Source: an uncultured Clostridium sp. (GTDB lineage Bacteria; Bacillota; Clostridia; TANB77; CAG-508). From it: a DNA stretch of 64,000 nt. The notes beneath the pieces were generated by a model, which saw only the letters and a list, made by a program, of their open reading frames with translations, was not told the DNA's origin and did no database searches. Each line of letters begins with the position of its first letter. The first letter of the stretch is position 1. The translations under genes were made by a program, and so were the position numbers. The stretch is taken from NCBI GenBank assembly GCA_947648905.1, contig CANSPP010000004.1:760-64759 (forward strand). Direction: 5' to 3'. Shown piece by piece: positions 5,757 through 28,429 of this stretch.

Positions 5757-5766
5757 TTTTATTCCT

Positions 5767-6257: not shown

Positions 6258-6263
6258 TAATAA

Positions 6264-6342
6264 TATAAAGGATAAGAGCTATGCCCTTATCTCTCTGGTT
6301 GGTGAGATTTATCCGCGGGATAGATCTCTATTTTTCTTTTTT
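6264..6342 (+). ncRNA. candidate ~80-nt sRNA, convergent and antisense to 3' end of the small membrane-peptide gene (putative type I antitoxin)
   Basis: perfect promoter upstream; terminator GAGATTTATCCGCGGGATAGATCTC (11-bp stem) + TATTTTTCTTTTTTT at 6303-6342; overlaps peptide gene 6287-6342. Confidence 0.35.
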
Positions 6343-6448
6343 TGGAATAATACTTTAATTGATATCTATTCTTCGAACACATATGTATTAAAAATCCTAT
6401 TCCTATAAAGAAAACTACTAATATTAACAGGATTCCTATTAATTTCAT
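6287..6448 (-). CDS. 53-aa membrane peptide, candidate type I toxin (TxpA/BsrG-like architecture)
   Basis: MKLIGILLILVVFFIGIGFLIHMCSKNRYQLKYYSKKRKIEIYPADKSHQPER: one TM helix + basic tail; strong RBS AGGAGG-9nt-ATG 6448; own promoter and structured leader. Confidence 0.5.
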   Translation of the reverse strand: MKLIGILLILVVFFIGIGFLIHMCSKNRYQLKYYSKKRKIEIYPADKSHQPER

Positions 6449-6589
6449 AGCCATCAACCTCCTTCTTACGTAATTTACATTTAAGCTATAAAAAGCATAA
6501 ATGCATAGATTAGTAAGCATATATTACATAAACTTACCAGTCTATGCACTTATGCTTGAAGGAAGTTGATTTGTTTACCAACCAATCGA

Positions 6590-6618
6590 ATTATACCATA
6601 AGATAAATCGGCAGTCAA
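6590..6618 (-). promoter_or_regulatory. internal promoter TTGACT-17-TATAAT after sufS driving the small peptide (and sufU-mnmA)
   Basis: minus strand ATTGACTGCCGATTTATCTTATGGTATAATTCG; leader 6494-6556 forms 15-bp stem AGCAUAAGUGCAUAG/CUAUGCAUUUAUGCU. Confidence 0.55.
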
Positions 6619-6641
6619 TAATTTTGCAAACTTTTTTTCGT

Positions 6642-7862: not shown

Positions 7863-7878
7863 TTTAATTTCCTTTCAA

Positions 7879-8934
7879 TTAATCTAGCCTTACTTCCATT
7901 TCATTAATAATTTGTTCTTTTAAATCTTCATTTGGGATATTTTCAAGAACTTTATTAAATTTAGCTCTTAACATAAGTTTTAAAGCTTCTTTTAATTCAA
8001 ATCCTCTACTCATAATATAAAATAGTTCTTTTTCTCCTATTTTACCAGCACTTGTTGCGTGATTTCCTTCTACGTCTTCTTCTTCACATAACAACATTGG
8101 AAGTGCGATTGATTTTGCTGTGTCTGATAAAATTGTACAGTATTCATTTTCATTTCCAATTGCTTTTTTACAACCTCTTTTGAAATCTATTGTACCTTTG
8201 AAATTCTTCTTCGCATTGTCTTTTATCGCACCTTGAACATCTATATCCAAATTGCTTTGTTCTCCCCATAATTCACCTATATAATTTAGGTCAAATATTT
8301 GCTCTTTTCTTCCTAAATATATTGTATTTATTGTGCTATCTGCTTTGTTTCCTTTTATGTTAGAATAATAATTTGTTATACTAGTTTTTCCACCAAAATC
8401 TACTACTATATATTTTAGAGTGCTTTTTGCCTCTAATTCATTTTCAATACTGATAAAATTATTTGTTTGTTCATTTACTAAATTTAATAGTATTACATTT
8501 ACTTTAGAATTTTCATTAGTATTTACTTTTATTATTCCATTATGAAAACCTTGTACATTTTTTTCTGTTTCATATTTTACTATAATAGTTGCTTCTATTT
8601 CTGGTTCTGTATTAATTTTAATGTTTTCTACTAAATTTTTATTTTGTTCACTTAATACAAAATCTAATTGTAGTGGTTCTTTTAAACTTTCTTTTATGTC
8701 TATTTCTAGTTCTACATTTGGTTTACTTATTATTCCAACTCCATATTTTAGTTCCATATTATTTGACTTTTCAGTTATTTCTGTTGAACTTGTCTTACCT
8801 TTTATTTCTAAACTTTCAAAACTTCCTATTTCTTCTGGAATTGTTATATTTTTTAATTTTATGTTATTTATATTGTAATTTCTTGAAGTTCTTACTGGTG
8901 TTTGATTTAATTTTAATTCTTCCATATTATCCAA
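7879..8934 (-). CDS. sufD: Fe-S cluster assembly protein SufD
   Basis: 351 aa, C-terminal SufB/SufD fold ...KELFYIMSRGFELKEALKLM. Confidence 0.85.
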   Translation of the reverse strand: MDNMEELKLNQTPVRTSRNYNINNIKLKNITIPEEIGSFESLEIKGKTSSTEITEKSNNMELKYGVGIISKPNVELEIDIKESLKEPLQLDFVLSEQNKNLVENIKINTEPEIEATIIVKYETEKNVQGFHNGIIKVNTNENSKVNVILLNLVNEQTNNFISIENELEAKSTLKYIVVDFGGKTSITNYYSNIKGNKADSTINTIYLGRKEQIFDLNYIGELWGEQSNLDIDVQGAIKDNAKKNFKGTIDFKRGCKKAIGNENEYCTILSDTAKSIALPMLLCEEEDVEGNHATSAGKIGEKELFYIMSRGFELKEALKLMLRAKFNKVLENIPNEDLKEQIINEMEVRLD

Positions 8935-10327
8935 TTGCTCCTTCCAATTCTAAGTTAATTAGATTATTCATTTCTACTGCATACTCTACTGGTAGTTCTT
9001 TTGATATTGGATAAGCAAAACCTCTTACTATCATTGCTTTTGCGTCTTCTTCTGACAATCCTCTACTCATCAAATAGAAAATTGTTTTATCACTAATTTT
9101 TCCAATCTTTGCTTCATGAGAAAATTCAACTTCATCTGTTCTTATGTCATTTACTGGAATTGTATCTGATTTTGATATATCGTCTAGCATAAGTGATTCG
9201 CAAGATACTACTGATTTTGAGTTTTTTGCGTTTTCATTTATTCTTACTAGTGAACGATATGTACAAGTTCCACCATCTTTTGAAATTGACTTTGCATTTA
9301 CAACACTTGATGTATTTTTAGCATTATGTACAACTTTAAATCCATTATCTAAATTTTGTCCTTTTCCTGCAAACGAAATTCCTGTGAATTCTGTTTTAGA
9401 ACCTTCTCCATTTAATATGCTCATTGGATATAACATAGATATTCTTGATCCAAATGAACCTGAAACCCAGTCTACTTGTGCATTCTTTCCTACTATTGCT
9501 TTTTTAGTATTTAAGTTAAGCATATTTTTTGACCAGTTTTCTATTGTTGAATATCTTAAATATGCATTATCCTTTACATATAGTTCAACACAACCTGCGT
9601 GTAAATTAACTTTGTTGTATTTAGGTGCACTACATCCTTCAATAAAATGTAAGCTTGCTCCTTCTTCTACAATAATTAATGTGTGTTCAAATTGTCCTGA
9701 TTCTGGTGAATTTAGTCTAAAATAAGATTGTAATGGAATATCCACTTTTACACCTTTTGGAACATATACAAATGAACCTCCTGACCAAACTGCTCCATGT
9801 AATGCAACAAATTTATGGTCATATACAGGTACACATTTCATAAAATGTTCTTTTACAATCTCTGGATATTCACGTACAGCAGTTTCCATATCTGTATAAA
9901 TTACACCTTGTTTTATCAAATCTTCTTTCATACTATGGTAAACAACTTCTGAATCATATTGAGCACCAACTCCTGCAAGTGAAGTCTTTTCAGCTTCTGG
10001 AATTCCAAGTTTGTCAAAAGTTTCTTTTATATCATCTGGTACATCCTCCCAACTATTACTCATTTTTGTTTTTGGTCTAACATATGTTGCAATCTCATCC
10101 ATATTTAATTCTGACAAATCTGGACCCCAAGTTGGCAACTCTAATTTATTATATACATCTAAAGCTTTTAATCTAAACTCTCTCATCCAATCTGGGTCAT
10201 TTTTTTGTTTAGAAAGTTCTTCTATAATTTCCTTTGTCAAACCTTTTTCTATTTTATAGTCATATTCGTCTTTATTTTTTATATCATATATATTTCTATT
10301 AATATCTTCTATTTGGGTTTTAGCCAT
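8927..10327 (-). CDS. sufB: Fe-S cluster assembly protein SufB
   Basis: 466 aa, typical SufB. Confidence 0.93.
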   Translation of the reverse strand: MAKTQIEDINRNIYDIKNKDEYDYKIEKGLTKEIIEELSKQKNDPDWMREFRLKALDVYNKLELPTWGPDLSELNMDEIATYVRPKTKMSNSWEDVPDDIKETFDKLGIPEAEKTSLAGVGAQYDSEVVYHSMKEDLIKQGVIYTDMETAVREYPEIVKEHFMKCVPVYDHKFVALHGAVWSGGSFVYVPKGVKVDIPLQSYFRLNSPESGQFEHTLIIVEEGASLHFIEGCSAPKYNKVNLHAGCVELYVKDNAYLRYSTIENWSKNMLNLNTKKAIVGKNAQVDWVSGSFGSRISMLYPMSILNGEGSKTEFTGISFAGKGQNLDNGFKVVHNAKNTSSVVNAKSISKDGGTCTYRSLVRINENAKNSKSVVSCESLMLDDISKSDTIPVNDIRTDEVEFSHEAKIGKISDKTIFYLMSRGLSEEDAKAMIVRGFAYPISKELPVEYAVEMNNLINLELEGAIG

Positions 10328-11145: not shown

Positions 11146-11619
11146 TTACTGGTGGTGTTTTTTTCCTTTGTACTCAAAAACACCTTTTCTTCTTGCACAA
11201 CATCTGCATTTTTCTTTGTTTATGTCATAGTCACAGTCTAAACTATTTAAATCTAATTCTTTATGTAAATATTTTGCAAGTTTATTTATTGTGCTGTCTG
11301 ATATTGCTGTTTTAATTTTTTCTGCTTCTTGCTCTGCTTCGTTCTCTTCTAATCCTAACACTTCTTTTAGGAATAGATATACTATGTCATATGCTTCTAA
11401 TATTTTTTTTGCTAAATTTTCTCCTTCTTTTGTTAGTTCAATAGTTCCATAAGATTCATAATTTACCAGCCCATTGTCTTTTAAGTTATTTATTGCTTTG
11501 TTTACACTGGGCTTTGTACAATTCATTTTGTTTGCTATATCTGTTACTCTTATGTTACCATTTTGTTTTTTTAGTATGTACATATTTTTTACATATTCTT
11601 CTAGTGCTTTTGATATCAT
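11146..11619 (-). CDS. DtxR/MntR-family metal-dependent transcriptional regulator (first gene of suf operon)
   Basis: 157 aa, N-terminal wHTH (VTDIANKMNCTKPSVNKAINNLKDNGLV), atypical Cys-rich C-terminus CDYDINKEKCRCCARRKG. Confidence 0.7.
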   Translation of the reverse strand: MISKALEEYVKNMYILKKQNGNIRVTDIANKMNCTKPSVNKAINNLKDNGLVNYESYGTIELTKEGENLAKKILEAYDIVYLFLKEVLGLEENEAEQEAEKIKTAISDSTINKLAKYLHKELDLNSLDCDYDINKEKCRCCARRKGVFEYKGKKHHQ

Positions 11620-14649: not shown

Positions 14650-15396
14650 ATGAAAGAATTAAAAATATTATACCTATACCCAGATATATTAGAACTATAT
14701 GGAGATTTTGGAAATATACAAGTTTTAAAATATAGATTAGAAAAACGTGGAATACAAGCCACTATTGTACCATATTCAATTGGCGATGTAGCCCCTGACT
14801 TTTCAAGTTTCGACTTAGTATTTGCAGGTGGTGGTGCTGACCAAGAGCAAGGTATTTTATCAGAAGATTTAATTAAGTATAAAGAAAGCATAAAAGAAGC
14901 TGTTGATAATGGTGTGTTCTTCTTGCTGATTTGTGGTGCTTATCAGCTATTTGGAAAATATTATAAAGGAGTTGAAGGAAATATTATTCCTGGCTTAGAA
15001 GTTTTTGATTATTATACAGAAGCTATAAATGATAGAAAACAAAGATGTATTGGTAATGTTGTAATAAATAGCAATTTAAATGGTAAAGAGACTAAAATTA
15101 TTGGTTTTGAAAATCATGGCGGACAAACTTTTGATGTTGATACCTCTTTTGGCGATGTACTTTTTGGTAATGGTAATAAGTTTGGAGATACTAAAGAAGG
15201 TTTCTTTTTAGAAAATGTTATTGCAACTTATTTACATGGACCTCTTCTTTCTAAAAATCCAGAACTTGCTGATTACATTATAAAGTATTGTTTAGATAGA
15301 AAATATGATGAAAATGTCGTTTTAGAGCCACTAGATGACATTTTTGAAAATCTTTGTAGAGAGCAATTGTTAGAAAGGTTCTTAAACCAAAAATAA
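14650..15396 (+). CDS. gatD: lipid II isoglutamine synthase glutaminase subunit GatD (CobB/CobQ-like GATase)
   Basis: 248 aa, MKELKILYLYPDILELYGDFGN..., partner of murT. Confidence 0.85.
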   Translation: MKELKILYLYPDILELYGDFGNIQVLKYRLEKRGIQATIVPYSIGDVAPDFSSFDLVFAGGGADQEQGILSEDLIKYKESIKEAVDNGVFFLLICGAYQLFGKYYKGVEGNIIPGLEVFDYYTEAINDRKQRCIGNVVINSNLNGKETKIIGFENHGGQTFDVDTSFGDVLFGNGNKFGDTKEGFFLENVIATYLHGPLLSKNPELADYIIKYCLDRKYDENVVLEPLDDIFENLCREQLLERFLNQK

Positions 15397-15439
15397 AAAA
15401 TTACCAGAAGGGAGAACCTTTCTGGTAATTTTTTGTTTT

Positions 15440-16147
15440 TCAATAGAATACAACCACATTCTGCAGCTGAATTACTGGCACTTCGGCAATTTTGTTGTTC
15501 TTAGCAAAAGTAAATGATACAAATCCGCCAAGCAGGTGCTTATCCCTATCTACAATAATCGGCTTTTGAAAGTTCTTATATTTAGAATAGAATTTTGCTA
15601 CCTTTTCATACTTGGTCTGTTTGTGACTTGTTTTAGTATCTTTTCGTTCAGACTTATACTTTACTCCTTCTTTTCCACCTCTAATTTTATCTGTCCTCAT
15701 TCCTCTAACCCATATATCGTCTTCTTCGCTATACAAGTGAGAGAATTTTGTGTCATACCGTAGAGCTTCATTTTGAGCCATACATTCTTTTGCAAACTGA
15801 GAACGTTCTTTTTGTCCTTCAATTTCCAAATATTTTGAATGCTGTTCTGGCATAAGGTTTGCTTTACGTTCATTGCATTCTTTGCAATATGGAATAAGAT
15901 TGTTTGTAATGTCTGGTCCACCATAATCTTGTGGAATAATATGGTCAACTGTCATCATATTACTCTTAGTTTTCTGGTTGCAGCATTTACAAATATTTTT
16001 TCCATATATTGCATAAGTCAAATCTTTCATAAGAGATTTAAAACCTACATCAAATCTCATATATAAGATTCCATCTTCGATAAAAACTACCCTTTTCTGG
16101 CCTCTTTCATCGTACCGAGTAAATTGTTCTGGTAATATAATATTCAT
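15440..16147 (-). CDS. HNH endonuclease domain protein (foreign codon usage)
   Basis: CKCCNQKTKSNMMTVDHIIPQDYGGPDITNNLIPYCKECNERK HNH motif; GC-richer codons incl. two in-frame CGG Arg codons (15758-15760, 16115-16117). Confidence 0.8.
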   Translation of the reverse strand: MNIILPEQFTRYDERGQKRVVFIEDGILYMRFDVGFKSLMKDLTYAIYGKNICKCCNQKTKSNMMTVDHIIPQDYGGPDITNNLIPYCKECNERKANLMPEQHSKYLEIEGQKERSQFAKECMAQNEALRYDTKFSHLYSEEDDIWVRGMRTDKIRGGKEGVKYKSERKDTKTSHKQTKYEKVAKFYSKYKNFQKPIIVDRDKHLLGGFVSFTFAKNNKIAEVPVIQLQNVVVFY

Positions 16148-16235
16148 TATATTTACCTCCTATCTATTATGTTTACATTATATAATGTATCTCATATATC
16201 TGTCAATAAAAATGTCGAAATATGTCAACTTTTAT

Positions 16236-18362
16236 TTACAAATGCATTACTCTTTGCTTTATTTCTTTTGTTTTTCCAACATTCCAGAAATTCTCTCCTA
16301 AATATCCGCAGGTCCTTCTTACTACTGTCATTTTATTATGGTCTTTATTTCCACAATTTGGGCATTCCCACTCATTATCTTTGTTTATTATTATTTCGCC
16401 ATCAAATCCGCACTTATGGCAATAATCTGACTTTGTATTAAATTCAGCATATTGAATATTGTCATAAATAAATTGTACTACTGTTTCTAATGCTTTTATG
16501 TTTTTGTTCATATTTGGTATTTCAACATATGAGATAGAACCACCTGTTGAGATTTTTTGGAATTCACTTTCAAATTCTAATTTTGCAAATGCATCGATTT
16601 CTTCTCTTACATCTACGTGATATGAATTTGTATAATATCCTTTATCTGTTATGTCTTTTATTGTTCCAAATTTTTCTTTATCAATTCTTGCAAATCTGTA
16701 ACATAAGCTCTCTGCTGGTGTTCCATATAGCGCAAATCCTATGTTTGTTTCCTTTTTCCATTTTTGTGTTGTTTCTTTTAAATAATTCATAACTTTAAGT
16801 GCAAACTCGCGTCCTTCTTCTGTTGTGTGAGATACACCTTTTACTAGTTTTGTAAGCTCATATATTCCAATATATCCAAGTGACATTGTAGAATATCCGC
16901 CATATAATAACTTGTCTATTTTTTCACCTTTTTTCAATCTTGCTAATGCTCCATATTGCCAGTGAATTGGGCTTATATCAGAACTTGTTCCAAGTAGTGC
17001 ATAATGTCTACACATTAATGCTTCTTTGCAAAGTTCCAATCTTTCATCTAATAGTTTCCAGAATTTTTCTTCGTCACCATCTGCTATAATTCCTATTTGT
17101 GGTAAGTTGATGCTTACTACACCTTGATTAAATCTTCCTTCAAATTTGTATTTTCCATTTTCGTCTTTCCAAGGTGATAAGAAACTTCTACATCCCATTG
17201 GGCTAAATACGTTTCCTTCGTAGTTTTCACGCATTTTTTTAGCTGATATATAATCTGGATACATTCTTTTTGCTGAACATTTTACTGCAAGTTTTGTTAG
17301 GTAGTCATATTCCCCACCTTTTAAATTGTTGAATTCATCTAATACATATACAAGCTTTGGAAATGCTGGTGTTACATATACTCCTACCTCGTTTTTTACT
17401 CCTTCATATCTTTGATTAAGGATTTCTTCTATTATCATTGCATTTTCTTTGATATATGGGTCGTCTTTTTCTAAATGTAAGAATAATGTTACAAATGGAG
17501 ATTGCCCATTTGTTGTCATTAGTGTATTTATTTGATATTGCATTGTTTGTATTCCTGCTTTTAATTCTGCTTTTACTCTTTCTTCCACTAATTCCTCTAT
17601 CATTTCTTTTGATAGTTGTTTTCCGTGTTTTTCTTCAAGCTCTTTTTTATATTTATTATAGCTTACTCTTAGGTATTTTCCTAAATGTATCATATCTATT
17701 GATTGTCCGCCATATTGGTTACTTGCCACTGTTGCAATTATTTGTGTTGTTACTGTACAAGCCACTTGGAAACTTTTTGGACTTTCTATCATTTTCCCAT
17801 ACATTACAGTTCCATTGTCTAGCATATCACCTATGTTTACTAAACAGCAATTAAATATTGGTTGTATAAAATAATCTGCATCGTGGAAATGTAAAATTCC
17901 GTCTTCATGTGCTTTTGATATCTTTTCTGGTAGTAGCATTCTTTTTGTTAAATCTCTTGAAACTTCTCCTGCTATGTAATCTCTTTGTGTTGATGCTAAC
18001 ATTGTGTTTTTGTTTGAGTTTTCTTCTGCTAGTTCTTTGTTTTCGTTTCTTAAAAGGCCTAATATAGATTCGTCTGTTGTGTTTTGTTTTCTTACTAATG
18101 CTCTTGTGTATCTATATACTATGTATCTTTTTGATAGTTCATATCTTTGTATTTCCATTAGTTTTTGTTCTATTATGTCTTGTATGTCTTCTACTAATAT
18201 TCTTTTTTTGCCCATTTCTTCAATATAGTTTATTATTTCTTTTATTTCTTCTTTTGTGGCTCTCTCTTTTGGTCTTACTTCTTGGTTTGCTTTTTCGATT
18301 GCTATTTTGATTTTTTCTCTATCAAAATCTACTACTTGTCCATTTCTTTTTATAACTTTCAT
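16236..18362 (-). CDS. nrdD: anaerobic ribonucleoside-triphosphate reductase (class III RNR), copy 2
   Basis: 708 aa, ~60% identical to copy 1, ATP-cone MKVIKRNGQVVDFDREKIKIAIEKAN, RRTCGYLG glycyl radical motif, CPNCGN. Confidence 0.95.
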   Translation of the reverse strand: MKVIKRNGQVVDFDREKIKIAIEKANQEVRPKERATKEEIKEIINYIEEMGKKRILVEDIQDIIEQKLMEIQRYELSKRYIVYRYTRALVRKQNTTDESILGLLRNENKELAEENSNKNTMLASTQRDYIAGEVSRDLTKRMLLPEKISKAHEDGILHFHDADYFIQPIFNCCLVNIGDMLDNGTVMYGKMIESPKSFQVACTVTTQIIATVASNQYGGQSIDMIHLGKYLRVSYNKYKKELEEKHGKQLSKEMIEELVEERVKAELKAGIQTMQYQINTLMTTNGQSPFVTLFLHLEKDDPYIKENAMIIEEILNQRYEGVKNEVGVYVTPAFPKLVYVLDEFNNLKGGEYDYLTKLAVKCSAKRMYPDYISAKKMRENYEGNVFSPMGCRSFLSPWKDENGKYKFEGRFNQGVVSINLPQIGIIADGDEEKFWKLLDERLELCKEALMCRHYALLGTSSDISPIHWQYGALARLKKGEKIDKLLYGGYSTMSLGYIGIYELTKLVKGVSHTTEEGREFALKVMNYLKETTQKWKKETNIGFALYGTPAESLCYRFARIDKEKFGTIKDITDKGYYTNSYHVDVREEIDAFAKLEFESEFQKISTGGSISYVEIPNMNKNIKALETVVQFIYDNIQYAEFNTKSDYCHKCGFDGEIIINKDNEWECPNCGNKDHNKMTVVRRTCGYLGENFWNVGKTKEIKQRVMHL

Positions 18363-18438: not shown

Positions 18439-18584
18439 AGCAAACTTATTTTTTTCATAAGTTTGCTTGTTTGTATGTTTTGATGTTTTATTACATTTTT
18501 ATTACAAATTTAATTCTTAAATTATAGTATTAACACTAAAAAACAAAATTTTATTCATAGCATTCTTTTATTCTCATAATACTA

Positions 18585-19751
18585 TTAAAATTTAATTCTA
18601 TTAAATTCATCATACAGTTCAATTAGATAATCACATACTTCATTGTTTCTTATAATTACATTTTCCGCGATTTTACTGCAGTAATTACAATTCAAACAAT
18701 TTCCTGTACAATGATCATTTTTAAAAAAATTAATAAATCCATCTAATTTTTGATTATCAATATATATATGTCTAGGATATCTTCTTTCACATCCCAAACC
18801 TCTTACTGTACGTATTTTTTCAACTATTTCATTTTTAGACATATTCTTTACTTTATTATCATTTATTGTTAGTTCTTCTTTAGAATTGCTCCAACCGTGC
18901 CCTTGAATTAAATCCAATAAATTTCCATTATATTTTCTTTCACTATACGCTTTTACTCTTTTTATAATCTCATCAGTTGGAAAATCTCTTTCAGTAATTT
19001 TAAAATGTTCTATCCCAATATTTTCATATTCTTTAATATCTTCTGGTCTAATCCAAGGCGACTTTATGTATTCCTCTAAATTCTTTAATTCATATTCTTG
19101 ACATTTGTATAAACACCAATCTGCATAATGTTCTTTATCCTTATTCATTGAATTTGATGCATGTGATAAAGCTGCTGTATGTGTATGAATATATGGACAA
19201 TTTTTTAAACAACTATTTGTCATAAGTAATTCTATTTTCGCTTTTTTTAGATTATCAACCATATATTTTAAAGTTTTAAAGTCTCTATTAATTTTCACAA
19301 AATCTACACAAACATAATCTGCTCCCATTTCTTCCCAAAATTTAGCTTTTTCAAAACTATCTATACAGGCAAATGTTGAAATTCTAACTGTAAAACAGTC
19401 ATAATATTTTTTTATTATTTGTAACAAAAAAGGATTTGTTACCGTTAAAGCATTAACGCCTATTTCTTTTAAGTAATCTAGAAATTTTCTAACATTTTGT
19501 TGCCATTCTTCACTTTGCTCCTTATTAGCAAGACAAGCTCCATTTAATAAATAATTAAATTTTATATTATTTTCTCTAACTTTCTTTACATGCCTCTCGA
19601 GCATAGTTTTATCTATATTTTTTAATGTATTTGATGGTCTTCCTCCCCCAACATAATCTTGTTGTAATTTTCCGTAAACTTCATATACTGGATAATCTTT
19701 TAACTTATCTATTAGTTCGTCATCAAAATTAGTAGCTACTGATAATTTCAT
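18585..19751 (-). CDS. uncharacterized protein, weak peptidase-U32-like TIM-barrel features, Cys-rich C-terminus (CTGNCLNCNYC)
   Basis: start at ATG 19751 (MKLSVATNF...) with RBS AAAGGAG; ...VTNPFLLQIIKKYYDCFTVRISTFACIDSFEKAKFWEEMGADYVCV resembles U32 core. Confidence 0.4.
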   Translation of the reverse strand: MKLSVATNFDDELIDKLKDYPVYEVYGKLQQDYVGGGRPSNTLKNIDKTMLERHVKKVRENNIKFNYLLNGACLANKEQSEEWQQNVRKFLDYLKEIGVNALTVTNPFLLQIIKKYYDCFTVRISTFACIDSFEKAKFWEEMGADYVCVDFVKINRDFKTLKYMVDNLKKAKIELLMTNSCLKNCPYIHTHTAALSHASNSMNKDKEHYADWCLYKCQEYELKNLEEYIKSPWIRPEDIKEYENIGIEHFKITERDFPTDEIIKRVKAYSERKYNGNLLDLIQGHGWSNSKEELTINDNKVKNMSKNEIVEKIRTVRGLGCERRYPRHIYIDNQKLDGFINFFKNDHCTGNCLNCNYCSKIAENVIIRNNEVCDYLIELYDEFNRIKF

Positions 19752-19764
19752 AATTATCACTCCT

Positions 19765-20811
19765 TTATAATATTTTCTTACATTTCTTTATAAAATTTCT
19801 ATTTGTTTTTCTATCTTGAACTGCAATTCTAAAATGAATATTCTTTTCTTCATCTTCTATAATCATTAACGAAATATCGTTTTTATTGAATTTTTCTATT
19901 ATCTCATAACTTAATTTAGTTTTAGAAAACAAAATATTTGATTCACTTGGATAAAATTCTATATTAAGTTTTCTTAGGTTTTTTTCTATATTCTTACGTT
20001 CTTTCATTATTAATTTTATATTCTTTTTGTAATTATTACTTAAAAGGATTTTTTTAGCATACTCACATGAAATCCCAGAAACTTCATTAACAGTTATATT
20101 TTCTTCATATATTTTCTTAAACTTTCTTGAGCAAATCATATATCCTATTCTTAAACCAGCAATTCCATAAGCCTTTGATAATGATTTTATAACTATAATA
20201 TTGTCTGGCATCTCTATTTTAGACAAACTGCTTTTATTGGAAAATTCAATTGCTGACTCGTCTACAATAACATATACATTTACATTTTCAGCAATATATT
20301 TTATCTCTTCGTTACTCATAAGCATTCCTGTTGGATTATTTGGATTGCATATATAAATCATTTTTGTATCCGCGTCAACACTTTTTATTATGCCTTCTGC
20401 ACTCACTTTTACGTTTTCTTTCATATATACTCTTTTAGTACTTCCGTTCATTGCAGTAACTGCATATTCTGCTTGATTAAATGTCAAAAACGGTGTGACT
20501 AGATTTCCTGAATTTTTAAACAAAATTTTTATTATATTTTGAAGAATGCCATTTGCACCTGCTCCTATAATAATTTCTTTTGTTTTAATATCTTGAATTG
20601 TCTTAATTGTCTCTCTTAATTCTTTAACTATATAATGTGATGGATACTCAGAAAGATTTGAATAATTAATTGTAAATTTTGGATATTTATATAGATACTT
20701 ACCAGATAATGTCATATCAATCTGTTTTGTTTCATAGTTAGTATAATCATCTAAAAAATTGCGCTTAGATATTTGATATGCCTTATTTCTTAAGCCTGAT
20801 TGTATATACAT
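19765..20811 (-). CDS. PLP-dependent aminotransferase, class I/II (HisC/CobD-like)
   Basis: 348 aa, SLSKAYGIAGLRIGYMI PLP-lysine region. Confidence 0.75.
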   Translation of the reverse strand: MYIQSGLRNKAYQISKRNFLDDYTNYETKQIDMTLSGKYLYKYPKFTINYSNLSEYPSHYIVKELRETIKTIQDIKTKEIIIGAGANGILQNIIKILFKNSGNLVTPFLTFNQAEYAVTAMNGSTKRVYMKENVKVSAEGIIKSVDADTKMIYICNPNNPTGMLMSNEEIKYIAENVNVYVIVDESAIEFSNKSSLSKIEMPDNIIVIKSLSKAYGIAGLRIGYMICSRKFKKIYEENITVNEVSGISCEYAKKILLSNNYKKNIKLIMKERKNIEKNLRKLNIEFYPSESNILFSKTKLSYEIIEKFNKNDISLMIIEDEEKNIHFRIAVQDRKTNRNFIKKCKKIL

Positions 20812-22501
20812 TTCTTTTACCTATCCCTACATCTGTTATGTGTTCATCAACATTTTTCTCTATATAAAATCCATTTTCTTTAACTATTTGGTTTATTTCT
20901 TCTTTTGATAGCAATACCATAGGTGGTCTATTTTCAACTTCATACACACCCTTTCCTAGATATTTTAAATCTTCTGTAATTATATCATTTGTAAATACTG
21001 ATAAAATTACATATCCATTCTTTTTTAATATCCTATTAAATTCCTTAATAGTATTTATAAATTCTATTTTAGTAGTTGCATTATGAATAACTCCAATTGA
21101 CAATATAATATCGAAAATTTCAGAAGATGTAGGTATATTGTCCATATTGGCTTGTACAAATTCAATATTTTCTTTTTCCAAAGAAAATGCCATTTCTTTA
21201 TATTTATCAACCGCTAAAACATTATATCCGTGGCTATTTAAATATCTTGAATATCTTCCTCCTCCACATCCGATATCTATTACTTTATCTATTTTTCTTT
21301 TATTACTTATTTCTTCTATTTCTTTTACTATATATTGAGAAACTGGTTTCTCTGTAAATTTTTTTGCGACTTCTTCATCTTGCCAAAATATTGTTTTTTC
21401 CTCTTTATTTTTTACTGTATAAGTACTATTGCAAATACTGGTTTCAATTACATTCATTCCTACTTTTTGCATTGTATCTTTACAAATTTCCTTTTGCTCT
21501 TCATTTTTTACTATTGCCATAAAAGCTGGTCCTACTGATGATAATGTTAAAAATTCACAGCAATTATTCTCATACAATTTTCTTAGTTCATTAGCTTTTT
21601 CTATTGTCTTTTCATATACAAATGAGCAGTTTTCAATACTTCCCATATTAAATCTATAATCAAATACAATATCTGCTAACTCTCTAATATTTCCATTGCA
21701 AAGTCCTGGTAATGCTTTATGTAATAAATTATATGCAATTTTTTCTGCATATTTATCACCTGTTCTCTTAAACTTCCACAAATTTTCTTCTTCTAATTTC
21801 ATTAATTCTTCTGCACTTTTAGGATTAAAATCATTTGGAATTGCTATTAATACTTTTGCATCATATTTCAATTTTGCTATTGTTGTTGCTTTGCCTGCAA
21901 TAATTATAATTCCTTCTTCAGTTAATCCGTTTGTAGCGCCTCCACCAATACATTGAACCATCTTCAGTTCTTCTTCATTTTCATCTGATATTTCTTCTCC
22001 ATGATTACTAGCTAAGAATTTTATCAAATCTTTGTTAGCTATAGGACATCCATATAATTCATTAATAGCTACCGCTACTGCCGTTATTGTAGAACTACTA
22101 GATCCAAATCCACAGTGCTTTATAACTTTAGAGGAATCTACATCTATTTTTAAAGACGGATTTACATTTAATATTTTAGTCATAATTCTATATGCATGCT
22201 TTATTAGTACTTTTCTTTGTGTTCTATCTGAAATCTCAAGTAACCCACCTGCTTCAGAAGTAATTTCTATTCCTACTTTAATTTTTATATTTAATGAAAT
22301 TACTACTTCACCTGGTGTAAATATTAAATCGTTATTATAGCAAACAGCAGCTGGATTTATGGCCATTGCGTCCATCCTACATGGATATTCTATATTTATC
22401 TTGTTGTACTTCAACTTTAAATTTTCTTCTATTGTATGAGGATATTTACTAAAAATATATCCTGCTTTAAATGTTGGAAATCTATCTACCACTTTTACCA
22501 A
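20783..22501 (-). CDS. fusion protein: GHMP-kinase-like domain (beta-RFAP-synthase/PduX-like) + class I SAM-dependent methyltransferase
   Basis: N-terminal HCGFGSSSSTITAVAVAINE GHMP motif; C-terminal VIDIGCGGGRYSRYL SAM motif I; start uncertain (non-ATG, GTG 22492 has RBS). Confidence 0.6.
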   Translation of the reverse strand: MVKVVDRFPTFKAGYIFSKYPHTIEENLKLKYNKINIEYPCRMDAMAINPAAVCYNNDLIFTPGEVVISLNIKIKVGIEITSEAGGLLEISDRTQRKVLIKHAYRIMTKILNVNPSLKIDVDSSKVIKHCGFGSSSSTITAVAVAINELYGCPIANKDLIKFLASNHGEEISDENEEELKMVQCIGGGATNGLTEEGIIIIAGKATTIAKLKYDAKVLIAIPNDFNPKSAEELMKLEEENLWKFKRTGDKYAEKIAYNLLHKALPGLCNGNIRELADIVFDYRFNMGSIENCSFVYEKTIEKANELRKLYENNCCEFLTLSSVGPAFMAIVKNEEQKEICKDTMQKVGMNVIETSICNSTYTVKNKEEKTIFWQDEEVAKKFTEKPVSQYIVKEIEEISNKRKIDKVIDIGCGGGRYSRYLNSHGYNVLAVDKYKEMAFSLEKENIEFVQANMDNIPTSSEIFDIILSIGVIHNATTKIEFINTIKEFNRILKKNGYVILSVFTNDIITEDLKYLGKGVYEVENRPPMVLLSKEEINQIVKENGFYIEKNVDEHITDVGIGKRNVYTIRLKK

Positions 22502-22544
22502 CTCCTTTTATTTGCTAATTCTTTGTTAAATTTTTCTGCAAACT

Positions 22545-23144
22545 TTAACTATCAATGTTATTTCCTTCGATTACATTTTCTCTATACCACTTTGCAAATT
22601 GGTCTTTTGCATCTCCCCAAAAAGTTGATTCATATTCATAATCTTCTTCTCGTAACTCGCTTAAAGTTTTACTTTCTCCATCTGGTATATAAAATTTGTC
22701 ATGCCATCTTCCGCGAGTTCCTTTCGGTTCAAATGCTATCTTTCCTGTTCCACCTCCTGAAAAAACAATAGGTTCATTATTTGGTTCACAATATGCAAAA
22801 CAGTGTTCTATTCTTGCTTTTCTATTTTTTTCATTTTTAAATAGTTCCAAAAACTTTTCTACCCCTATCTGTTTATCAAAATACGCATTATATGGCCCTG
22901 GCAATCCTCCTAAAGCTTCTATGTATAATCCTGTATCTGATTTTAGAACTGAACATCCTAATTTATTTGCTGCATATTTTGCACTAAATGCAACTACTTC
23001 TGCACAAGTTTTAGCTTGTGTCTCTAAAATTTCAAAATCTGGATTTACAATTTCTATGTTAAATCCATATTTTTTTGAAAAAAACTCATTAGCTTCTTCA
23101 ACTTTATGCTGATTTGTTGTTAAGTAAATTAATTTCCTTTTCAT
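22545..23144 (-). CDS. non-canonical purine NTP pyrophosphatase (Ham1/RdgB/ITPase family)
   Basis: 199 aa, LTTNQHKVEEAN ... Ham1 motifs. Confidence 0.8.
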   Translation of the reverse strand: MKRKLIYLTTNQHKVEEANEFFSKKYGFNIEIVNPDFEILETQAKTCAEVVAFSAKYAANKLGCSVLKSDTGLYIEALGGLPGPYNAYFDKQIGVEKFLELFKNEKNRKARIEHCFAYCEPNNEPIVFSGGGTGKIAFEPKGTRGRWHDKFYIPDGESKTLSELREEDYEYESTFWGDAKDQFAKWYRENVIEGNNIDS

Positions 23145-23722
23145 TATCTTTCATCCTCTCTTTCCTTCACATTTGATTTTATTATAATGTCTTCCATAGT
23201 TTCTATGAAACTATCAGTATTATCATTTTGCAAATACACGCAAGATTTTATTGCATATTGCTCTAATTGCTCTAATCCCATATCTTTTTCTTGTTGTAAA
23301 ATCATCTCAAACTGCTCATCTGTCAAATTAATTTTTTCTCTTCTTTGATAATTATTTTTTAATTGTTCAAATGGCGCTGCTATATATATTATTTGTGGAT
23401 TTTCTATTGAAAATCTATTTGCAATAAATTTAATCCCATTCAAAGACCTACTACCTGTTATTATAGTTATATCTTTATCTTGTCCTTTGAATAATCTTTC
23501 TATTTGCTTGCACAATATTATATCTGTAAAATTTTCACCATATTTTTCTTCTCCATCTTTAATCCATTCACTTAATGATATATTAGGTGAAAATATTTTA
23601 TGAGCTTCTCTTATTAATGGTCCTAAATCTATATGCTCCACATTATAATCTTTTTTTAACTTATTAACTATATATGTTTTTCCAACACCATGCGGTCCTA
23701 CCAAAAAGAACACATTTTTCAT
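23144..23722 (-). CDS. P-loop NTPase, nucleoside/nucleotide-kinase-like
   Basis: 192 aa, FLVGPHGVGKTYIVNKL Walker A; stop overlaps downstream ATG (TAATG). Confidence 0.6.
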   Translation of the reverse strand: MKNVFFLVGPHGVGKTYIVNKLKKDYNVEHIDLGPLIREAHKIFSPNISLSEWIKDGEEKYGENFTDIILCKQIERLFKGQDKDITIITGSRSLNGIKFIANRFSIENPQIIYIAAPFEQLKNNYQRREKINLTDEQFEMILQQEKDMGLEQLEQYAIKSCVYLQNDNTDSFIETMEDIIIKSNVKEREDER

Positions 23723-23979
23723 TTTACCACTCCATTCTGTTTATTATTATAAATTATCCTGTGTATCCTTTTGGGTTTTTCTTTTGTTCCTACTTTCTAA
23801 TTATATGTTGGAATTATATTATCTTTTAATTGTTTTTCATTTTCATACCTTCATTTGCATTATAGCACCGTTTATCCTCATTGTAAATATATTTTTTAAA
23901 ATTATTATCATTTCATTATGTACAACAAAAATTACACTATAAAAAGTACAAAAATGCCAGTATTATGACTGACATTATT

Positions 23980-24612
23980 CTAATATATTTTTAATGTAAT
24001 TTTATTTTTATTTTTCTCAATAAATCCATCTTCTTTAAGAAGCTTCATTTCACGCATCATAGCACTTCTATCAACACTCAAATAATCAGCCAAATCAGTT
24101 AAAGAAAAAGGCAACGTAAAAGTCTTATTCAACGTCCTTGTAGAAAGAAGCGTAAAATATCCAAGTAGTTTCTCACGAATGGTTCTCTTTGTTAATAGCT
24201 CCACACGCATATTTAAATCTATAACTTTGTTTAAAATTAATTCTGGTAAATTCTCAGTTAGGAAATTGTGAAATTTACAATTGCTCCTGCATTTAGTATG
24301 TATACTATCATATATATATATTAAAACTTCACATTTTTCACGAGCTTCTACTAGTAACTCGTTGTTTGTTGTTACGGTATAAAACACTTCACCAAAGATA
24401 TCGTTTTTGGATAGATGCTCTACTATGGTTCTGTTTCCGTTTAAATCATAACGTACCAAATCTGCATTTCCACTTATCAGTATGCAAAATTGATTTCTTT
24501 TTTGTATGTATGTTGTTATTACTTCGTTTTTTGAAAAAGTTTTCTTTTGTACTCTGTGACAGTTATGTTCAAAGTCGTTTATGAAACTGTCCATATCAAA
24601 ATTCAAATTCAT
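23980..24612 (-). CDS. Crp/Fnr family transcriptional regulator
   Basis: cNMP-binding N-domain and C-terminal HTH (TLPFSLTDLADYLSVDRSAMMREMKLLKEDGFI); start set to ATG 24612 (RBS AAGGG); track start is GTG inside operator. Confidence 0.8.
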   Translation of the reverse strand: MNLNFDMDSFINDFEHNCHRVQKKTFSKNEVITTYIQKRNQFCILISGNADLVRYDLNGNRTIVEHLSKNDIFGEVFYTVTTNNELLVEAREKCEVLIYIYDSIHTKCRSNCKFHNFLTENLPELILNKVIDLNMRVELLTKRTIREKLLGYFTLLSTRTLNKTFTLPFSLTDLADYLSVDRSAMMREMKLLKEDGFIEKNKNKITLKIY

Positions 24613-24642
24613 TTTTATCAACCCTTTTTCAATTCTGAAGTT

Positions 24643-24673
24643 ATTATATAACACTTTTGTTGCAAAAGCAACA
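24643..24673 (-). promoter_or_regulatory. promoter (-10 TATAAT, -35 TTGCTT) of Crp/Fnr gene overlapped by palindrome TGTTGCAAAAGCAACA (24658-24673)
   Basis: minus strand TTGTTGCTTTTGCAACAAAAGTGTTATATAAT. Confidence 0.5.
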
Positions 24674-24817
24674 ATTCCAATGTTAAAAAAGTTGGCTTTT
24701 AAGAAAATCTAAACCAAATCCTCTTGATAAGAGTTTTAAGAATACTTAACCTCTATACTGATGAATAGTTATAAAAATTTAATGAAAAAAATAATCCTTA
24801 GTAACTCGATATAAGGT

Positions 24818-26596
24818 TTAATTCAGCCATTCTTTTACAATTCTGTTGAAGTTTTCCATTGTCTCTTTATTATATTCATACTCATGGTTTTCAACTTTCT
24901 TAAATATTTCTAAAGAATAATATGCTTTTTCATCAACATAATCTTCATTGTTAATTCCTATATATTTTTTATCTTCTTCTGAAAATAAGTCTTCTATTGA
25001 TAAATTGATATTTTCATTTTCCCTGTTTGTTCCATCAATAAACTTTATATCATTAAAATCAACTAATAGTTTATTAGTTAAGATTTTATATTGTCTTCTT
25101 CCTTCTGTATCTTGATCAATAAGAATTTTATATTTATATCCCCAACCAATTAAAATTGAAATAATATTATGGATATTAGTTACACTAGTAGATGGAATAA
25201 TATTGTATTCTTTATTATATTGTTTTTGCATTAGAAAAGCCTTTAAGTAATTGTAATCAGAAATACCTTCTGTAATTATATTTACTTTTTTACTATCTAT
25301 AGCTGTGAAACTATATCTCATATTCATTCCTATCGCAGTTAAAATTGGAGTAATTGTTTCTTTTTTAGAAGTCATTTTATGCGGTAGTGAATAATATTTA
25401 TTTCCAATATTACTATTGCCCAACTTATCTTTTATAACTATTCGAGTTCTATATAATTTATCTTGATAAATCATAGTTGGTAACTGAGTAGTATATACAA
25501 TTTGGTTATCTTTTGAAGTAAAATCTTCAAATAGATTTAATATTTCTTTTTGAGCATTAACATGTAAATATACCCCAGGTTCATCTAATAAAATAAAATA
25601 ATTTTCTATATCATATTTTTGAGTTTTAGCTAGGAGTTGTATGTACATATTTAAATACCATTTTAATCCATTACTTCTTTCACTTAAGTTTAAATATTTA
25701 CTATTAGTTTTAACCACAAAATTTAATGATTCTGTATCGAAGTTAACTCTAAGAGTTACATCTTCTTGCTTATAAAATTTGTTAAATTCTTTTATAATTG
25801 TTCCAATTTTGTTATTTATTTCTTCTACAAAATTATATTTATCATCATCTTCAGATAATTTCCAATATCCCATTAAACCTTCCAAATCCATCCCAATAGT
25901 TTTTAATAAATATTTTAGCATTTGTTTTGATTGTGTATTATCAGCTAAATATTTTCGAGTATATTTTGTTCTAAGCTCAATATTATCTAAAAGAATAAAT
26001 TGTGGAAATAATGAATGAATATTTATTAAATATTCCCTGCATTCTTTCAAATACTGAATAAATTCTTCATAACTCGAATTTCCTTCCAGCAACAATATTA
26101 TGTTATCTATATAAGTGTAATTTATAAACACTTTTGTTTCAGCATTGTTGATCATTTTGATAATATTATTGAATTGATTTTTCTTATTTTCATCATTCAA
26201 ATAAATATTTTTATTTAATTCATTCATCTTTTTTCTATTTTTTTGAAAGTTCTTATTATTACTTATAATTTCTGACAAACCACCATCAATATCTAAATCA
26301 TACTGGTCATTAATTGTAATAATAGTTTCTTTTGTTGATTTATAAATATTTTTTTCGCTCCTATATGGAACTAGAACTAATGATACTAATGGTTTCTTCA
26401 TATTGTTCTTGTTATTATTTTTAAAATAGTCAATGTCATTTATTCCTGATAAATCTAGTTTTCCAATTGCTTGTATTAAATTACTTTTTCCAGATTCATT
26501 TTTTCCAATAATTGTATTGATGTTTTCTAAATCTATCCTGTTATTTTCCTCTGCAAATGATTTGAAATTTTGTATTTTAACTGATTTTACTTTCAT
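24818..26596 (-). CDS. OLD-family nuclease: N-terminal ABC/AAA_15-type ATPase + C-terminal TOPRIM (candidate antiphage defence, single-gene class)
   Basis: Walker A GKNESGKSN, Walker B ILLDEPGVYLH, TOPRIM VNIITEGISDYNYL ... ILIDQDTEG; start at ATG 26596 (MKVKSVKIQNFKSF) with RBS AAAGGAG; extremely AT-rich. Confidence 0.8.
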   Translation of the reverse strand: MKVKSVKIQNFKSFAEENNRIDLENINTIIGKNESGKSNLIQAIGKLDLSGINDIDYFKNNNKNNMKKPLVSLVLVPYRSEKNIYKSTKETIITINDQYDLDIDGGLSEIISNNKNFQKNRKKMNELNKNIYLNDENKKNQFNNIIKMINNAETKVFINYTYIDNIILLLEGNSSYEEFIQYLKECREYLINIHSLFPQFILLDNIELRTKYTRKYLADNTQSKQMLKYLLKTIGMDLEGLMGYWKLSEDDDKYNFVEEINNKIGTIIKEFNKFYKQEDVTLRVNFDTESLNFVVKTNSKYLNLSERSNGLKWYLNMYIQLLAKTQKYDIENYFILLDEPGVYLHVNAQKEILNLFEDFTSKDNQIVYTTQLPTMIYQDKLYRTRIVIKDKLGNSNIGNKYYSLPHKMTSKKETITPILTAIGMNMRYSFTAIDSKKVNIITEGISDYNYLKAFLMQKQYNKEYNIIPSTSVTNIHNIISILIGWGYKYKILIDQDTEGRRQYKILTNKLLVDFNDIKFIDGTNRENENINLSIEDLFSEEDKKYIGINNEDYVDEKAYYSLEIFKKVENHEYEYNKETMENFNRIVKEWLN

Positions 26597-26754
26597 AAAT
26601 TGCTCCTTTATTTTTCTATTATTATTCCTCCGCATTATTATTTTCTTCTAATTTTTCTCTTTTTCGTCTTACAATAATTTTTCTTTATCTAATCTACTGA
26701 TATCTAAATATTTATGATCTAGTACATCTATTTTACTTATAACTGATTTTCCTA

Positions 26755-26925
26755 AATTTTTTCTATATCGTCTTGCGCAACTTTGGCAGCATGTTCACCT
26801 ATTTTTGCTATTTTTCTATTTTCTTTTAATCCATAAGATTTATGCTCTTTTGTAAGTTTTCTTGTAGCTACTTTCCCTAAATCTGCTAATACAACTTTCA
26901 TATCAGTCATATTATTTCCTAATGC
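26755..26925 (-). CDS. possible small ORF (56 aa) MTDMKVVLADLGKVATRKLTKEHKSYGLKENRKIAKIGEHAAKVAQDDIEKI
   Basis: below 60-aa track cutoff; weak RBS; lies between OLD gene and hisS. Confidence 0.2.
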
Positions 26926-27067
26926 CTCTTTTCTAATATTCTTATTTTATCTTCAATCATTCTTTTTTTACATATTCCCGTAATTTCTTGGATTAATACT
27001 ATCTGTTAAAGCTCTAATAACATCAATTACACTTAAATAGTATTTTTCCTCTCTTACGTAACTTTAA

Positions 27068-28384
27068 TTAAAATTTAATCTCATCAATTTGTTCTAAACT
27101 ATATTCCTTTTCTTCCCCTGTTTCCATATCTTTTAGCTTAAACTTATTATTTGTAATCTCATCTTCACCCAAAATAATAACATAAGGAATTTCCAATTTA
27201 TCGGCATATTTAAATTTAGCCTTTAACTTTTTATTATTCAAGTAAATTTCAGTATTAATTCCATTATTTCTTAAAGCTGTTGCAACTTTAATTGGAACAG
27301 TTAAATCTTCTACCATTGGTATTACTAGAACTTGTGCAATAGATTTTTTAGTTGCTTTTATCAATTCTAATTCATTTAATTTATAAAATAAACGTGTTAA
27401 GCCAATTGATATTCCAACACCAGGCAGTTTTTTATCTGTATAATATTCTGCTAAATTCTCATATCTTCCACCTGAGCAAACACTTCCTAATTCTCTGTAA
27501 TCATTTAAGAATGTTTCATATACTGTTCCTGTATAATAATCTAATCCTCTTGCTATTGTTAAATCTACACTATAATTCTTTTCTGGGATTCCAAATAAAT
27601 TCATATTTTTAATTACATATTCTAATTCATATATTCCAGTTTTAAATGTTTCATTTTCTATATCTAAAGATTTTAATTTTTCTAGTTTTTCTTCGGACGT
27701 TCCTTCTATTTCTATAAAATCAACTATCTTTTGAATTGCATCTTCTGAAATTCCTATTTTTTGTAATTCTACAATTACCGCTTCTTTTCCTATTTTATCA
27801 ATTTTATCTATTATTCTTAAAATCTCAACAGAAGCTTCTTTTTGCCCAATACCTTCAAACAATCCATTCAAAATCTTTCTATTATTAACTCTAATTGTAA
27901 AATCGCTAAATCCTAAATCTGTAAAAATAGAATAAATTACACTTGGAAGCTCTGCATCATTTATTAAATCTAACTCTCCATCCCCAATAATATCAATATC
28001 ACATTGATAAAACTCACGGAATCTTCCCTTTTGTGTTCTTTCTCCCCTGTACACCTTTCCTATTTGATATCTTCTAAAAGGAAAACTTAAATTTCCATAG
28101 TTTTTTGCAACATATTTTGAAAGTGGTACAGTTAGGTCAAATCTTAAAGATAAATCTGTATCTCCTTTATTAAATCTGTAAATTTGTTTTTCTGTTTCAC
28201 CACCTGCTTTTGCAAGCAAAACTTCTGATAATTCTACAATTGGTGTGTCTAGTGGTAAAAAACCAAATTTTTTATATGTATTTTCTATTTTTTCTCTCAT
28301 TTGGTTAAACAATATCTGTTCATTTGGTAACAATTCCATAAATCCAGATAATGTTCTTGGTTCTGTTTTGGTCATATCTTTCAT
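27068..28384 (-). CDS. hisS: histidine--tRNA ligase
   Basis: class II motif 2 FRRYQIGKVYRGERTQKGRFREFYQCD, C-terminal anticodon-binding domain; start 28384 or 28375. Confidence 0.9.
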   Translation of the reverse strand: MKDMTKTEPRTLSGFMELLPNEQILFNQMREKIENTYKKFGFLPLDTPIVELSEVLLAKAGGETEKQIYRFNKGDTDLSLRFDLTVPLSKYVAKNYGNLSFPFRRYQIGKVYRGERTQKGRFREFYQCDIDIIGDGELDLINDAELPSVIYSIFTDLGFSDFTIRVNNRKILNGLFEGIGQKEASVEILRIIDKIDKIGKEAVIVELQKIGISEDAIQKIVDFIEIEGTSEEKLEKLKSLDIENETFKTGIYELEYVIKNMNLFGIPEKNYSVDLTIARGLDYYTGTVYETFLNDYRELGSVCSGGRYENLAEYYTDKKLPGVGISIGLTRLFYKLNELELIKATKKSIAQVLVIPMVEDLTVPIKVATALRNNGINTEIYLNNKKLKAKFKYADKLEIPYVIILGEDEITNNKFKLKDMETGEEKEYSLEQIDEIKF

Positions 28385-28429
28385 TCCTTTCTTTCCTGCC
28401 AGCAACCTCTGTTCCCATTGGCAGATTTA

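Follow-up and report, generated by a model that had tools for sequence, protein, structure and literature searches.

Is the lone OLD-family gene that lies between hisS and a Crp/Fnr regulator gene in an uncultured gut Clostridium sp. a single-gene defense system against phages, and was it brought there by horizontal transfer? These questions were raised by a 64,000-nucleotide stretch of that genome (contig CANSPP010000004.1, positions 760 to 64,759), which is referred to here as the window. A sequence-only reading of the window had proposed an acquired Class 1 OLD gene or, as an alternative, a fused PARIS-like gene. According to our sequence comparisons, the window protein is a Class 1 OLD-type ATPase and Toprim nuclease, which adds one member to a group of single-gene antiphage proteins that is known, though it has had little study, and is not a new system, and its gene is horizontally acquired into the conserved hisS-Crp junction. 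We put the probability that the gene is a horizontally acquired Class 1 single-gene OLD nuclease, most likely serving as a stand-alone antiphage defense protein, at about 0.72. The conserved catalytic residues, the lack of a partner gene, an empty site in related genomes, and homologs on mobile elements and in defense islands all agreed with the earlier proposal of a stand-alone Class 1 OLD gene as a candidate single-gene defense. The positions of the features are collected in Table 1.

The protein has the domains of an OLD family member. In Pfam searches, AAA_15 matched residues 1-370 at 51.3 bits (cutoff 32.1) and AAA_21 scored 51 bits (cutoff 27). The OLD-like_TOPRIM domain was matched by 57 of 63 diverse members of the family, and DUF2813, the N-terminus of YbjD, was matched by 10 of the 63. 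Both the ATPase and the OLD-type TOPRIM that had been predicted were recovered with hidden Markov models, the first above the cutoff for the window protein itself and the second at the level of the family, the window protein alone being below the TOPRIM cutoff. The best PADLOC model was Old (E 6.4e-25, residues 194-539), which was also the sole match when the C-terminal 193 residues were searched alone. The PADLOC AriA, GajA, MADS, HEC, and retron ATPase models matched the ATPase head only. The parts expected of the family were present, namely an N-terminal ATP-binding cassette (ABC)-type ATPase with Walker A, Walker B, and D-loop, where the H-loop position is the exception (Gln371), and a C-terminal OLD-type Toprim domain with a two-metal acidic set.

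Relatives of the window protein were numerous. A search of cluster representatives (1.84 billion; family clusters counted at 50% identity) returned 3,612 related clusters, 347 of them with E < 1e-30, and the full-length family matches listed were nearly all 580-630 residues long. The profile of a family alignment, A2, built from 63 relatives at 25-59% identity, found the Class 1 OLD of Thermus scotoductus (Ts OLD; 6P74) as its best solved relative (E 2e-17). Searching the PDB with the single sequence gave mostly Rad50 P-loop matches, and Ts OLD was recovered only by the family profile. Ts OLD was also the top PDB match in Foldseek (E 2.8e-10) for the AlphaFold2 model, which had a mean predicted local distance difference test (pLDDT) score of 78.7. 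P2 Old was connected to the family by profile-profile comparison only; tblastn against phage genomes gave one weak partial match and did not detect P2, and every tblastn match to plasmids was below 30% identity. In both sequence and structure, the window protein was nearer to Class 1 proteins than to the other classes.

The residues needed for catalysis were conserved. All four motifs that the sequence-only reading had pointed out were present: GKNESGKSN (residues 31-39), LLDEPGVYLH (336-345), ITEG (441-444), and DQDTEG (494-499). Besides the invariant ATPase residues in Table 1, A348, Q349, P417, E443, G444, D494, E535, and K557 were invariant in the 63 relatives, D447 and D496 were conserved in more than 90% of them, and position 533 was T, E, or S in the family. 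The distance of 7 residues from the Walker B Asp to H345 is found also in Ts OLD (E276/H283) and P2 Old (D299/H306) (PMC7049728). In the Toprim domain, E443, D447, D494, and D496 aligned to E377, D381, D431, and D433 of Ts OLD and, by hhalign of A2 against P2 Old (98.7% probability, E 3e-16), to E398, E402, D453, and D455 of P2 Old. The metal B pair of Ts OLD, S478/E480, was matched by motif to S533-I-E535. The roles of the metal-binding residues in Ts OLD and P2 Old are published and experimentally validated (PMC7049728). K557 is a candidate catalytic lysine that would be the equivalent of Burkholderia pseudomallei (Bp) OLD K562, P2 K550, and Ts R487. It was chosen because it was invariant in 63 of 63 relatives, whereas K543, which has a P2-like spacing (+8 from E535), was not conserved in the wider family and was rejected.

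The ABC head is made of residues 1-105 and ~276-372, with a helical insertion between them (residues ~106-275), and is followed by a linker and the C-terminal Toprim domain. The insertion was confidently predicted in the AlphaFold2 model (residues 106-275, pLDDT ~90) and is placed between ATPase strands as in Ts OLD.

Table 1. Features of the window discussed in the text. Positions are window positions; "invariant" and percentages refer to the alignment of 63 relatives.
Feature	Position	Strand	Basis or remark
2,411-bp insertion vs nearest genome	24652..27062		Pseudogene debris, OLD gene, and ~165 bp of 3' flank; GC 23.5%
OLD-family gene	24818..26596 (stop codon included at 24818)	minus	Open reading frame; AAA_15 and AAA_21 above Pfam cutoffs; PADLOC Old
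Longest open reading frame	24818..26635	minus	605 residues
Ribosome-binding site AAAGGAG	26603..26609	minus	6 nt upstream of ATG 26596; read from the sequence
Walker A / P-loop, residues 31-38 (GKNESGKS; K37)	26483..26506	minus	G31, N33, G36, K37 invariant
ABC-signature-like motif, residues 306-313 (ERSNGLKW)	25658..25681	minus	S308, G310, W313 invariant; E306, R307 >90%
Walker B and D-loop, residues 334-345 (FILLDEPGVYLH; D338, E339, H345)	25562..25597	minus	D338, E339, P340, H345 invariant
H-loop position, Gln371	25484..25486	minus	
Toprim nuclease core, residues 438-557	24926..25285	minus	Metal A E443, D494, D496; metal B D447, S533, E535; K557 invariant
Coding remnants of an unrelated gene, broken by stops and frameshifts	26700..27040	minus	Upstream edge of the insertion; three-frame translation
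hisS	27068..28405	minus	
cNMP-binding/HTH_Crp_2 (Crp/Fnr) regulator gene	23980..24654	minus	
Palindrome upstream of the Crp/Fnr gene	24655..24680		TTGTTGCTTTTGCAACAA
Second insertion	18507..23971		5.5 kb, between the Crp/Fnr gene and nrdD
Five genes of the second insertion	18585-19760, 19765-20811, 20783-22501, 22545-23144, 23144-23722	minus	Co-oriented
SAM riboswitch	1640..1744	minus	RF00162, 81.9 bits

Several features set the window protein apart from Ts OLD and P2 Old, namely a canonical Walker B, a signature-like motif, a Gln at the H-loop position, and a longer helical C-terminus with an invariant Lys. Identity to Ts OLD was ~13% in structural alignments. The Walker B of the window protein has the canonical Asp-Glu (D338-E339), whereas in Ts OLD a Glu replaces the Asp, and an S-x-G-x-x-W-like signature motif is retained that is degenerate in Ts OLD (PMC7049728). 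Gln371 occupies the H-loop position, where Ts OLD has a His. The window protein is also 64 residues longer, with ~57 residues of helices past the metal B Glu, and its conserved basic residue, K557, lies at +22 from that Glu, compared to an Arg at +7 in Ts OLD.

P2 Old, the Class 1 archetype, is of similar length (586 residues vs 592) and is a single-gene defense protein carried by a mobile element. It could be aligned to the window protein only from Walker B to the DxD motif, a stretch of ~170 residues with 22% identity. P2 Old is encoded by a prophage, is triggered by inhibition of RecBCD, and cleaves tRNA anticodon stems (PMC12445682). Vibrio cholerae OLD (Vc OLD) and Escherichia coli YbjD/OldB are chromosomal single-gene ATPase-Toprim proteins that have no partner and restrict phages alone (PMC12392090, PMC13261556); Vc OLD is set beside the window protein by description, and no close relationship is claimed for YbjD, which matched the window family weakly by hhalign (42% probability). 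Mechanisms vary within the class, as Vc OLD is a DNA nickase (PMC12392090) and the phenotype of YbjD is Toprim-independent (PMC13261556).

Other classes of OLD protein act with partner genes or accessory parts, and these were sought around the OLD gene. No GajB or other UvrD-like helicase flanked it in the window or its homologs in 14 loci, and no reverse transcriptase gene or separate Toprim gene adjoined it in the window. The earlier observation that neither GajB nor a separate AriB was adjacent was correct, since the only window neighbors are hisS and the Crp/Fnr gene. No partner gene was conserved across the window and five homolog contexts, a feature of Class 1. Class 2 was rejected on the missing gajB in the window and homolog loci and on the GajA profiles, which matched only the N-terminal ATPase; Bp OLD, represented by its C-terminal region (6NK8), was set beside the window protein together with GajA in this comparison. 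Class 3, the retron type I-B effector, was rejected as there was no reverse transcriptase and no Rfam noncoding RNA, and retron_eff_Eco8 scored 28.8 bits against a cutoff of 250 and matched the P-loop only. No Rfam match was found near the OLD gene; the sole Rfam match in the window, ~23 kb away, was an S-adenosylmethionine (SAM) riboswitch. Also, no tRNA genes were found in the window.

The fused PARIS-like alternative corresponds to Class 4 (AriA-AriB), in which a tRNA-cleaving Toprim of the DUF4435 type is released or activated by the ATPase when it senses an anti-restriction protein such as Ocr. PADLOC AriA models do match the ATPase (residues 1-370, E 2e-15), the family profile matches AriA structures at ~1e-11, and translation of the commonest close homolog is coupled to that of an MmeI-type restriction enzyme, which would fit the sensing of anti-restriction. 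However, the AriA matches do not extend past the generic ABC head, and a stronger match (6e-25) was given by the Old model, which spans the Toprim domain too. DUF4435 of the AriB type was matched by none of the 63 family members, compared to 57 for OLD-like_TOPRIM, and the C-terminal domain matched PADLOC Old only. The best solved relatives were Ts OLD, along with the C-terminal region of Bp OLD, with P2 Old aligning at the probability given above. Class 4 was rejected on these grounds, and this part of the sequence-only reading did not hold; we regard a fused PARIS as highly improbable.

Next, the locus was compared with related genomes. Along the minus strand, the locus runs recJ, relA, a metallo-beta-lactamase-fold hydrolase gene, hisS, the OLD gene, the cNMP-binding/HTH_Crp_2 regulator gene, five more genes, and nrdD. 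Domain assignments confirmed that the two neighbors are the Crp/Fnr regulator gene and hisS, as had been noted. Species-representative genomes were scanned with the hisS protein, which gave 80 loci, all from uncultured gut Clostridia and relatives. In the nearest genome, L006, amino-acid identity was 96% for hisS, 98% for Crp, and 98% for nrdD; its DNA identity to the window of ~90-94% makes it a sister lineage, not a strain of the same species. L006 has hisS, 37 bp, Crp, and then nrdD, and the blastn break points (window 27063 = L006 11342, window 24651 = L006 11380) enclose these 37 bp compared to 2,411 bp in the window. In 11 further related genomes, hisS, Crp, and nrdD were found together and the OLD gene was absent. 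Since L006 and the 11 outgroup genomes are without the OLD gene, there was an insertion in the window lineage and not a deletion elsewhere. The suggested check, whether the locus is variable, was answered among related genomes rather than strains. The view that the gene was acquired was supported by the empty site in these 12 genomes, by its position in the stretch of lowest GC, and by debris at the edge of the insertion.

The borders of the insertion gave no target-site duplication or terminal inverted repeats beyond chance-level AT-rich matches. In a scan of 24500..27200 for promoters and terminators, no terminators were found and shuffled sequence had more promoter-like sites, which makes the scan uninformative in such AT-rich DNA. 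A palindrome upstream of the Crp/Fnr gene (Table 1) was kept in L006 at 11347..11375 (TGTTGCAAAAGCAACA); possible roles are an operator for the regulator itself or the stem of the hisS terminator. Eleven genomes that are more distant had Crp inverted relative to hisS.

The upstream 470 bp of the insertion holds interrupted coding fragments, including a 52-residue open reading frame (MTDMKVV...). By tblastn, the remnants matched an Arcobacter cloacae plasmid protein annotated as "Bro-N domain-containing protein" (40.7% identity, E 2e-4). This is a weak match and the only one behind a DinD/Bro-N identity, which is tentative; an NCBIfam search of the remnants gave no match. Among the genes neighboring the homologs elsewhere, those encoding 285-residue, 224-residue, DUF5655, 97-residue, and 107-residue proteins were compared with this DNA as possible decayed partners, and none was similar. 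The remnants are probably left over from the DNA that brought in the OLD gene.

The 593-residue open reading frame described earlier at 24818-26596 was real, although it lies on the minus strand and encodes 592 residues when read from the ATG at 26596. This ATG, and not the one upstream at 26635, is almost certainly the true start judging from the sequence, because of the AAAGGAG site ahead of it, the MKVKS N-terminus of the homologs, and the DNA homology, which begins only 25-55 nt upstream. Essentially all homologs (more than 100) are 589-597 residues long with this N-terminus. At least about 120 homologs of the same length have 60-84% identity. The protein was 100% identical over 592 residues in two other samples (Logan contigs), where the same insertion was present. 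Pairwise ratios of nonsynonymous to synonymous substitution (dN/dS) between the window gene and five homologs were 0.11-0.21, which indicates purifying selection.

The AT-skew reported for the gene stood at the level of base composition. Its GC content was 22.7%, compared to 29.0 +/- 2.1% in windows of the same size (z = -2.95), and it forms the lowest 1.8-kb stretch of the 64 kb. The claim did not extend to the codons, as third-position GC was 0.16, which is not exceptional and is similar to that of neighboring genes. Therefore, the AT bias lies mainly in the amino-acid composition, which is rich in Asn, Lys, and Ile, and not in a distinct codon usage.

Homologs of the gene were found in five other contexts. 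The 84% homolog, the most widespread close variant (180 collection blocks), is carried at different chromosomal sites by an integrative element with an integrase, RepA_N, and TnpV (L001-L003). There, the first 20 nt of the OLD homolog (8001..9779) are shared with the 3' end of a gene for a 932-residue MmeI-family type IIL restriction-modification enzyme (5222..8020), and a functional link between the two is possible. The element that carries the 77% homolog (L088-L090) is of this type too, but it has Fic/VbhA among its cargo and lacks MmeI. Next to the 75% homolog (L093) lie genes for two PemK toxins and an integrase, together with a type I restriction-modification system. One 66% homolog (L004) is in an island with a HEPN protein, a pair made up of an AAA+ ATPase and an S8 protease, DUF5655, Fic, and a pair of AAA_21 and RloB, and another (L091) is inserted in a polysaccharide-synthesis locus. 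The L004 island, in a related gut Clostridia genome, is a dense defense island (3771..7066 and 15377..17223). No neighboring gene was common to the five contexts. DNA homology between these loci and the window covered the gene only; it stopped at the stop codon on one side and 25-55 nt ahead of the ATG on the other. From this limit and the low dN/dS, the gene is a mobile single-gene cassette under purifying selection; it is often accompanied by defense genes.

The overlap with the MmeI-family gene raises two further readings. In one, the window gene is the orphaned half of a two-gene system, in which the donor OLD worked with the MmeI-family enzyme and the window copy is inactive or partly functional. 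The overlap is found in the most widespread variant, and the DNA upstream of the OLD gene inside the window insertion is decayed. However, the other close homologs (62-77% identity) have neither an MmeI neighbor nor any other common partner, and across all loci only the OLD gene is homologous in DNA sequence. The window open reading frame is, in addition, intact, unchanged in the two other samples, and under purifying selection, so an orphaned half is unlikely. In the other reading, the gut-Clostridia clade is a distinct Class 1 subtype that acts as a back-up sensing the failure or inhibition of restriction, similar to the logic of PARIS, and not as an autonomous nuclease. The marks of such a subtype may be the canonical Walker B and signature-like motif combined with a Gln H-loop, a conserved catalytic Lys whose place on a C-terminal helix resembles Class 2, and the single-gene cassette. 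This reading was suggested because of the MmeI coupling, which was found in one sub-lineage only, and we consider it doubtful.

A role outside defense was also considered, either as a genome-maintenance or cell-cycle ATPase like SMC, Rad50, or RecF (cf. Cran1) or as a selfish addiction-type toxin of a mobile element. The ATPase head is similar to Rad50, SMC, and RecF, the window gene is placed among housekeeping genes, and Cran1 is reported to be an OLD-family ATPase with a cellular role (PMC12796447). The sequence-only reading had named assignment to a housekeeping family such as RecF or SbcC, with no TOPRIM catalytic residues, as the outcome that would overturn it. Instead, the NCBIfam recF, SMC, Rad50, and ABC transporter models reached only the P-loop or Walker B region, far under their cutoffs (recF 22.7 vs 172 bits). 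RecF, SMC, and Rad50 covered about the first 45 residues, with SMC and Rad50 confined to residues 1-44, and a RecF/SbcC/Rad50/SMC housekeeping ATPase was rejected. The Toprim catalytic residues are strictly conserved. Also, the gene is accessory, being absent at the locus in the nearest and 11 related genomes, and its homologs are on integrative elements and in defense islands. A non-defense role is, therefore, improbable.

A stand-alone Class 1 OLD defense protein has precedents in P2 Old, Vc OLD, and YbjD (PMC12445682, PMC12392090, PMC13261556), and a mechanism can be proposed by analogy with Ts OLD (PMC7049728), P2 Old (PMC12445682), and Vc OLD (PMC12392090). The protein would dimerize through the helical insertion, which is the dimerization domain in Ts OLD, and the binding and hydrolysis of ATP by engaged heads would license the Toprim site. 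Two Mg2+/Ca2+ ions would be held there by E443/D494/D496 and D447/S533/E535, with the invariant K557 predicted to stabilize the transition state. Upon a phage cue, the Toprim site would cut double-stranded nucleic acid. Among characterized Class 1 proteins, Vc OLD nicks DNA, Ts OLD degrades DNA in vitro, and P2 Old cuts tRNA anticodon stems. The target may, by comparison, be phage or host DNA, nicked as by Vc OLD, or tRNA anticodon stems, as with P2 Old. Cleavage would stop phage replication, possibly at a cost to the cell. Both the defense role and the DNA-or-tRNA substrate are inferred from the characterized OLD proteins and the context.

Several observations weigh against this reading. For the window protein alone, OLD-like_TOPRIM (residues 440-496) scored 20 bits, which is under the 23.2 cutoff. 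In the AlphaFold2 model, the linker (residues 372-432) had low confidence and the global TM-scores to Ts OLD were low (0.27-0.30); therefore, the predicted domain arrangement and active-site geometry stay provisional. The H-loop residue is Gln371 in the window protein, as it is Gln in 21 of 24 close homologs, whereas 61 of 63 in the wider family have His. Since the H310A change in Ts OLD abolishes ATPase activity (PMC7049728), ATP turnover may be altered in this clade. The window gene is also outside any defense island, alone with housekeeping genes on both sides, and what was inserted with it is otherwise decayed. Archaeal Cran1 (PMC12796447) and, in part, YbjD (PMC13261556) show that a protein of OLD architecture need not have a Toprim-dependent defense role. 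Finally, the case for phage resistance in the window clade is drawn from context and homology.

A second, independent insertion of 5.5 kb was observed between the Crp/Fnr gene and nrdD; it was absent from L006 and the 11 related genomes. Its five genes encode an AAA_17/adenylate-kinase-like P-loop protein, a Ham1/RdgB-like nucleoside triphosphate diphosphatase, a 572-residue fusion of a GHMP-kinase N-domain and a SAM methyltransferase, a HisC/CobD-like pyridoxal phosphate enzyme, and a peptidase-U32-like protein. All were under the NCBIfam equivalog cutoffs, and a PADLOC check of the insertion for defense content found nothing specific. It could be a cassette for nucleotide or small-molecule modification.

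Class 1 OLD genes are reported as rare, with ~0.45% of genomes having them (DefenseFinder, cited in PMC12392090), and phage phenotypes are available only for P2 Old (tRNA amputation), Vc OLD (DNA nicking), and YbjD (a Toprim-independent effect). According to a 2023 review, other defense genes are not found near Class 1 OLD genes (PMC10568477); contrary to this generalization, close homologs of the window gene do often adjoin defense genes. Members of the clade are spread, each as a cassette of one gene, by small integrative elements found in gut Clostridia of humans and animals. A large, conserved Firmicutes clade with a clean empty site would be a convenient additional test case for what single-gene OLD proteins sense and cut. 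The finding is otherwise a routine defense-gene annotation.

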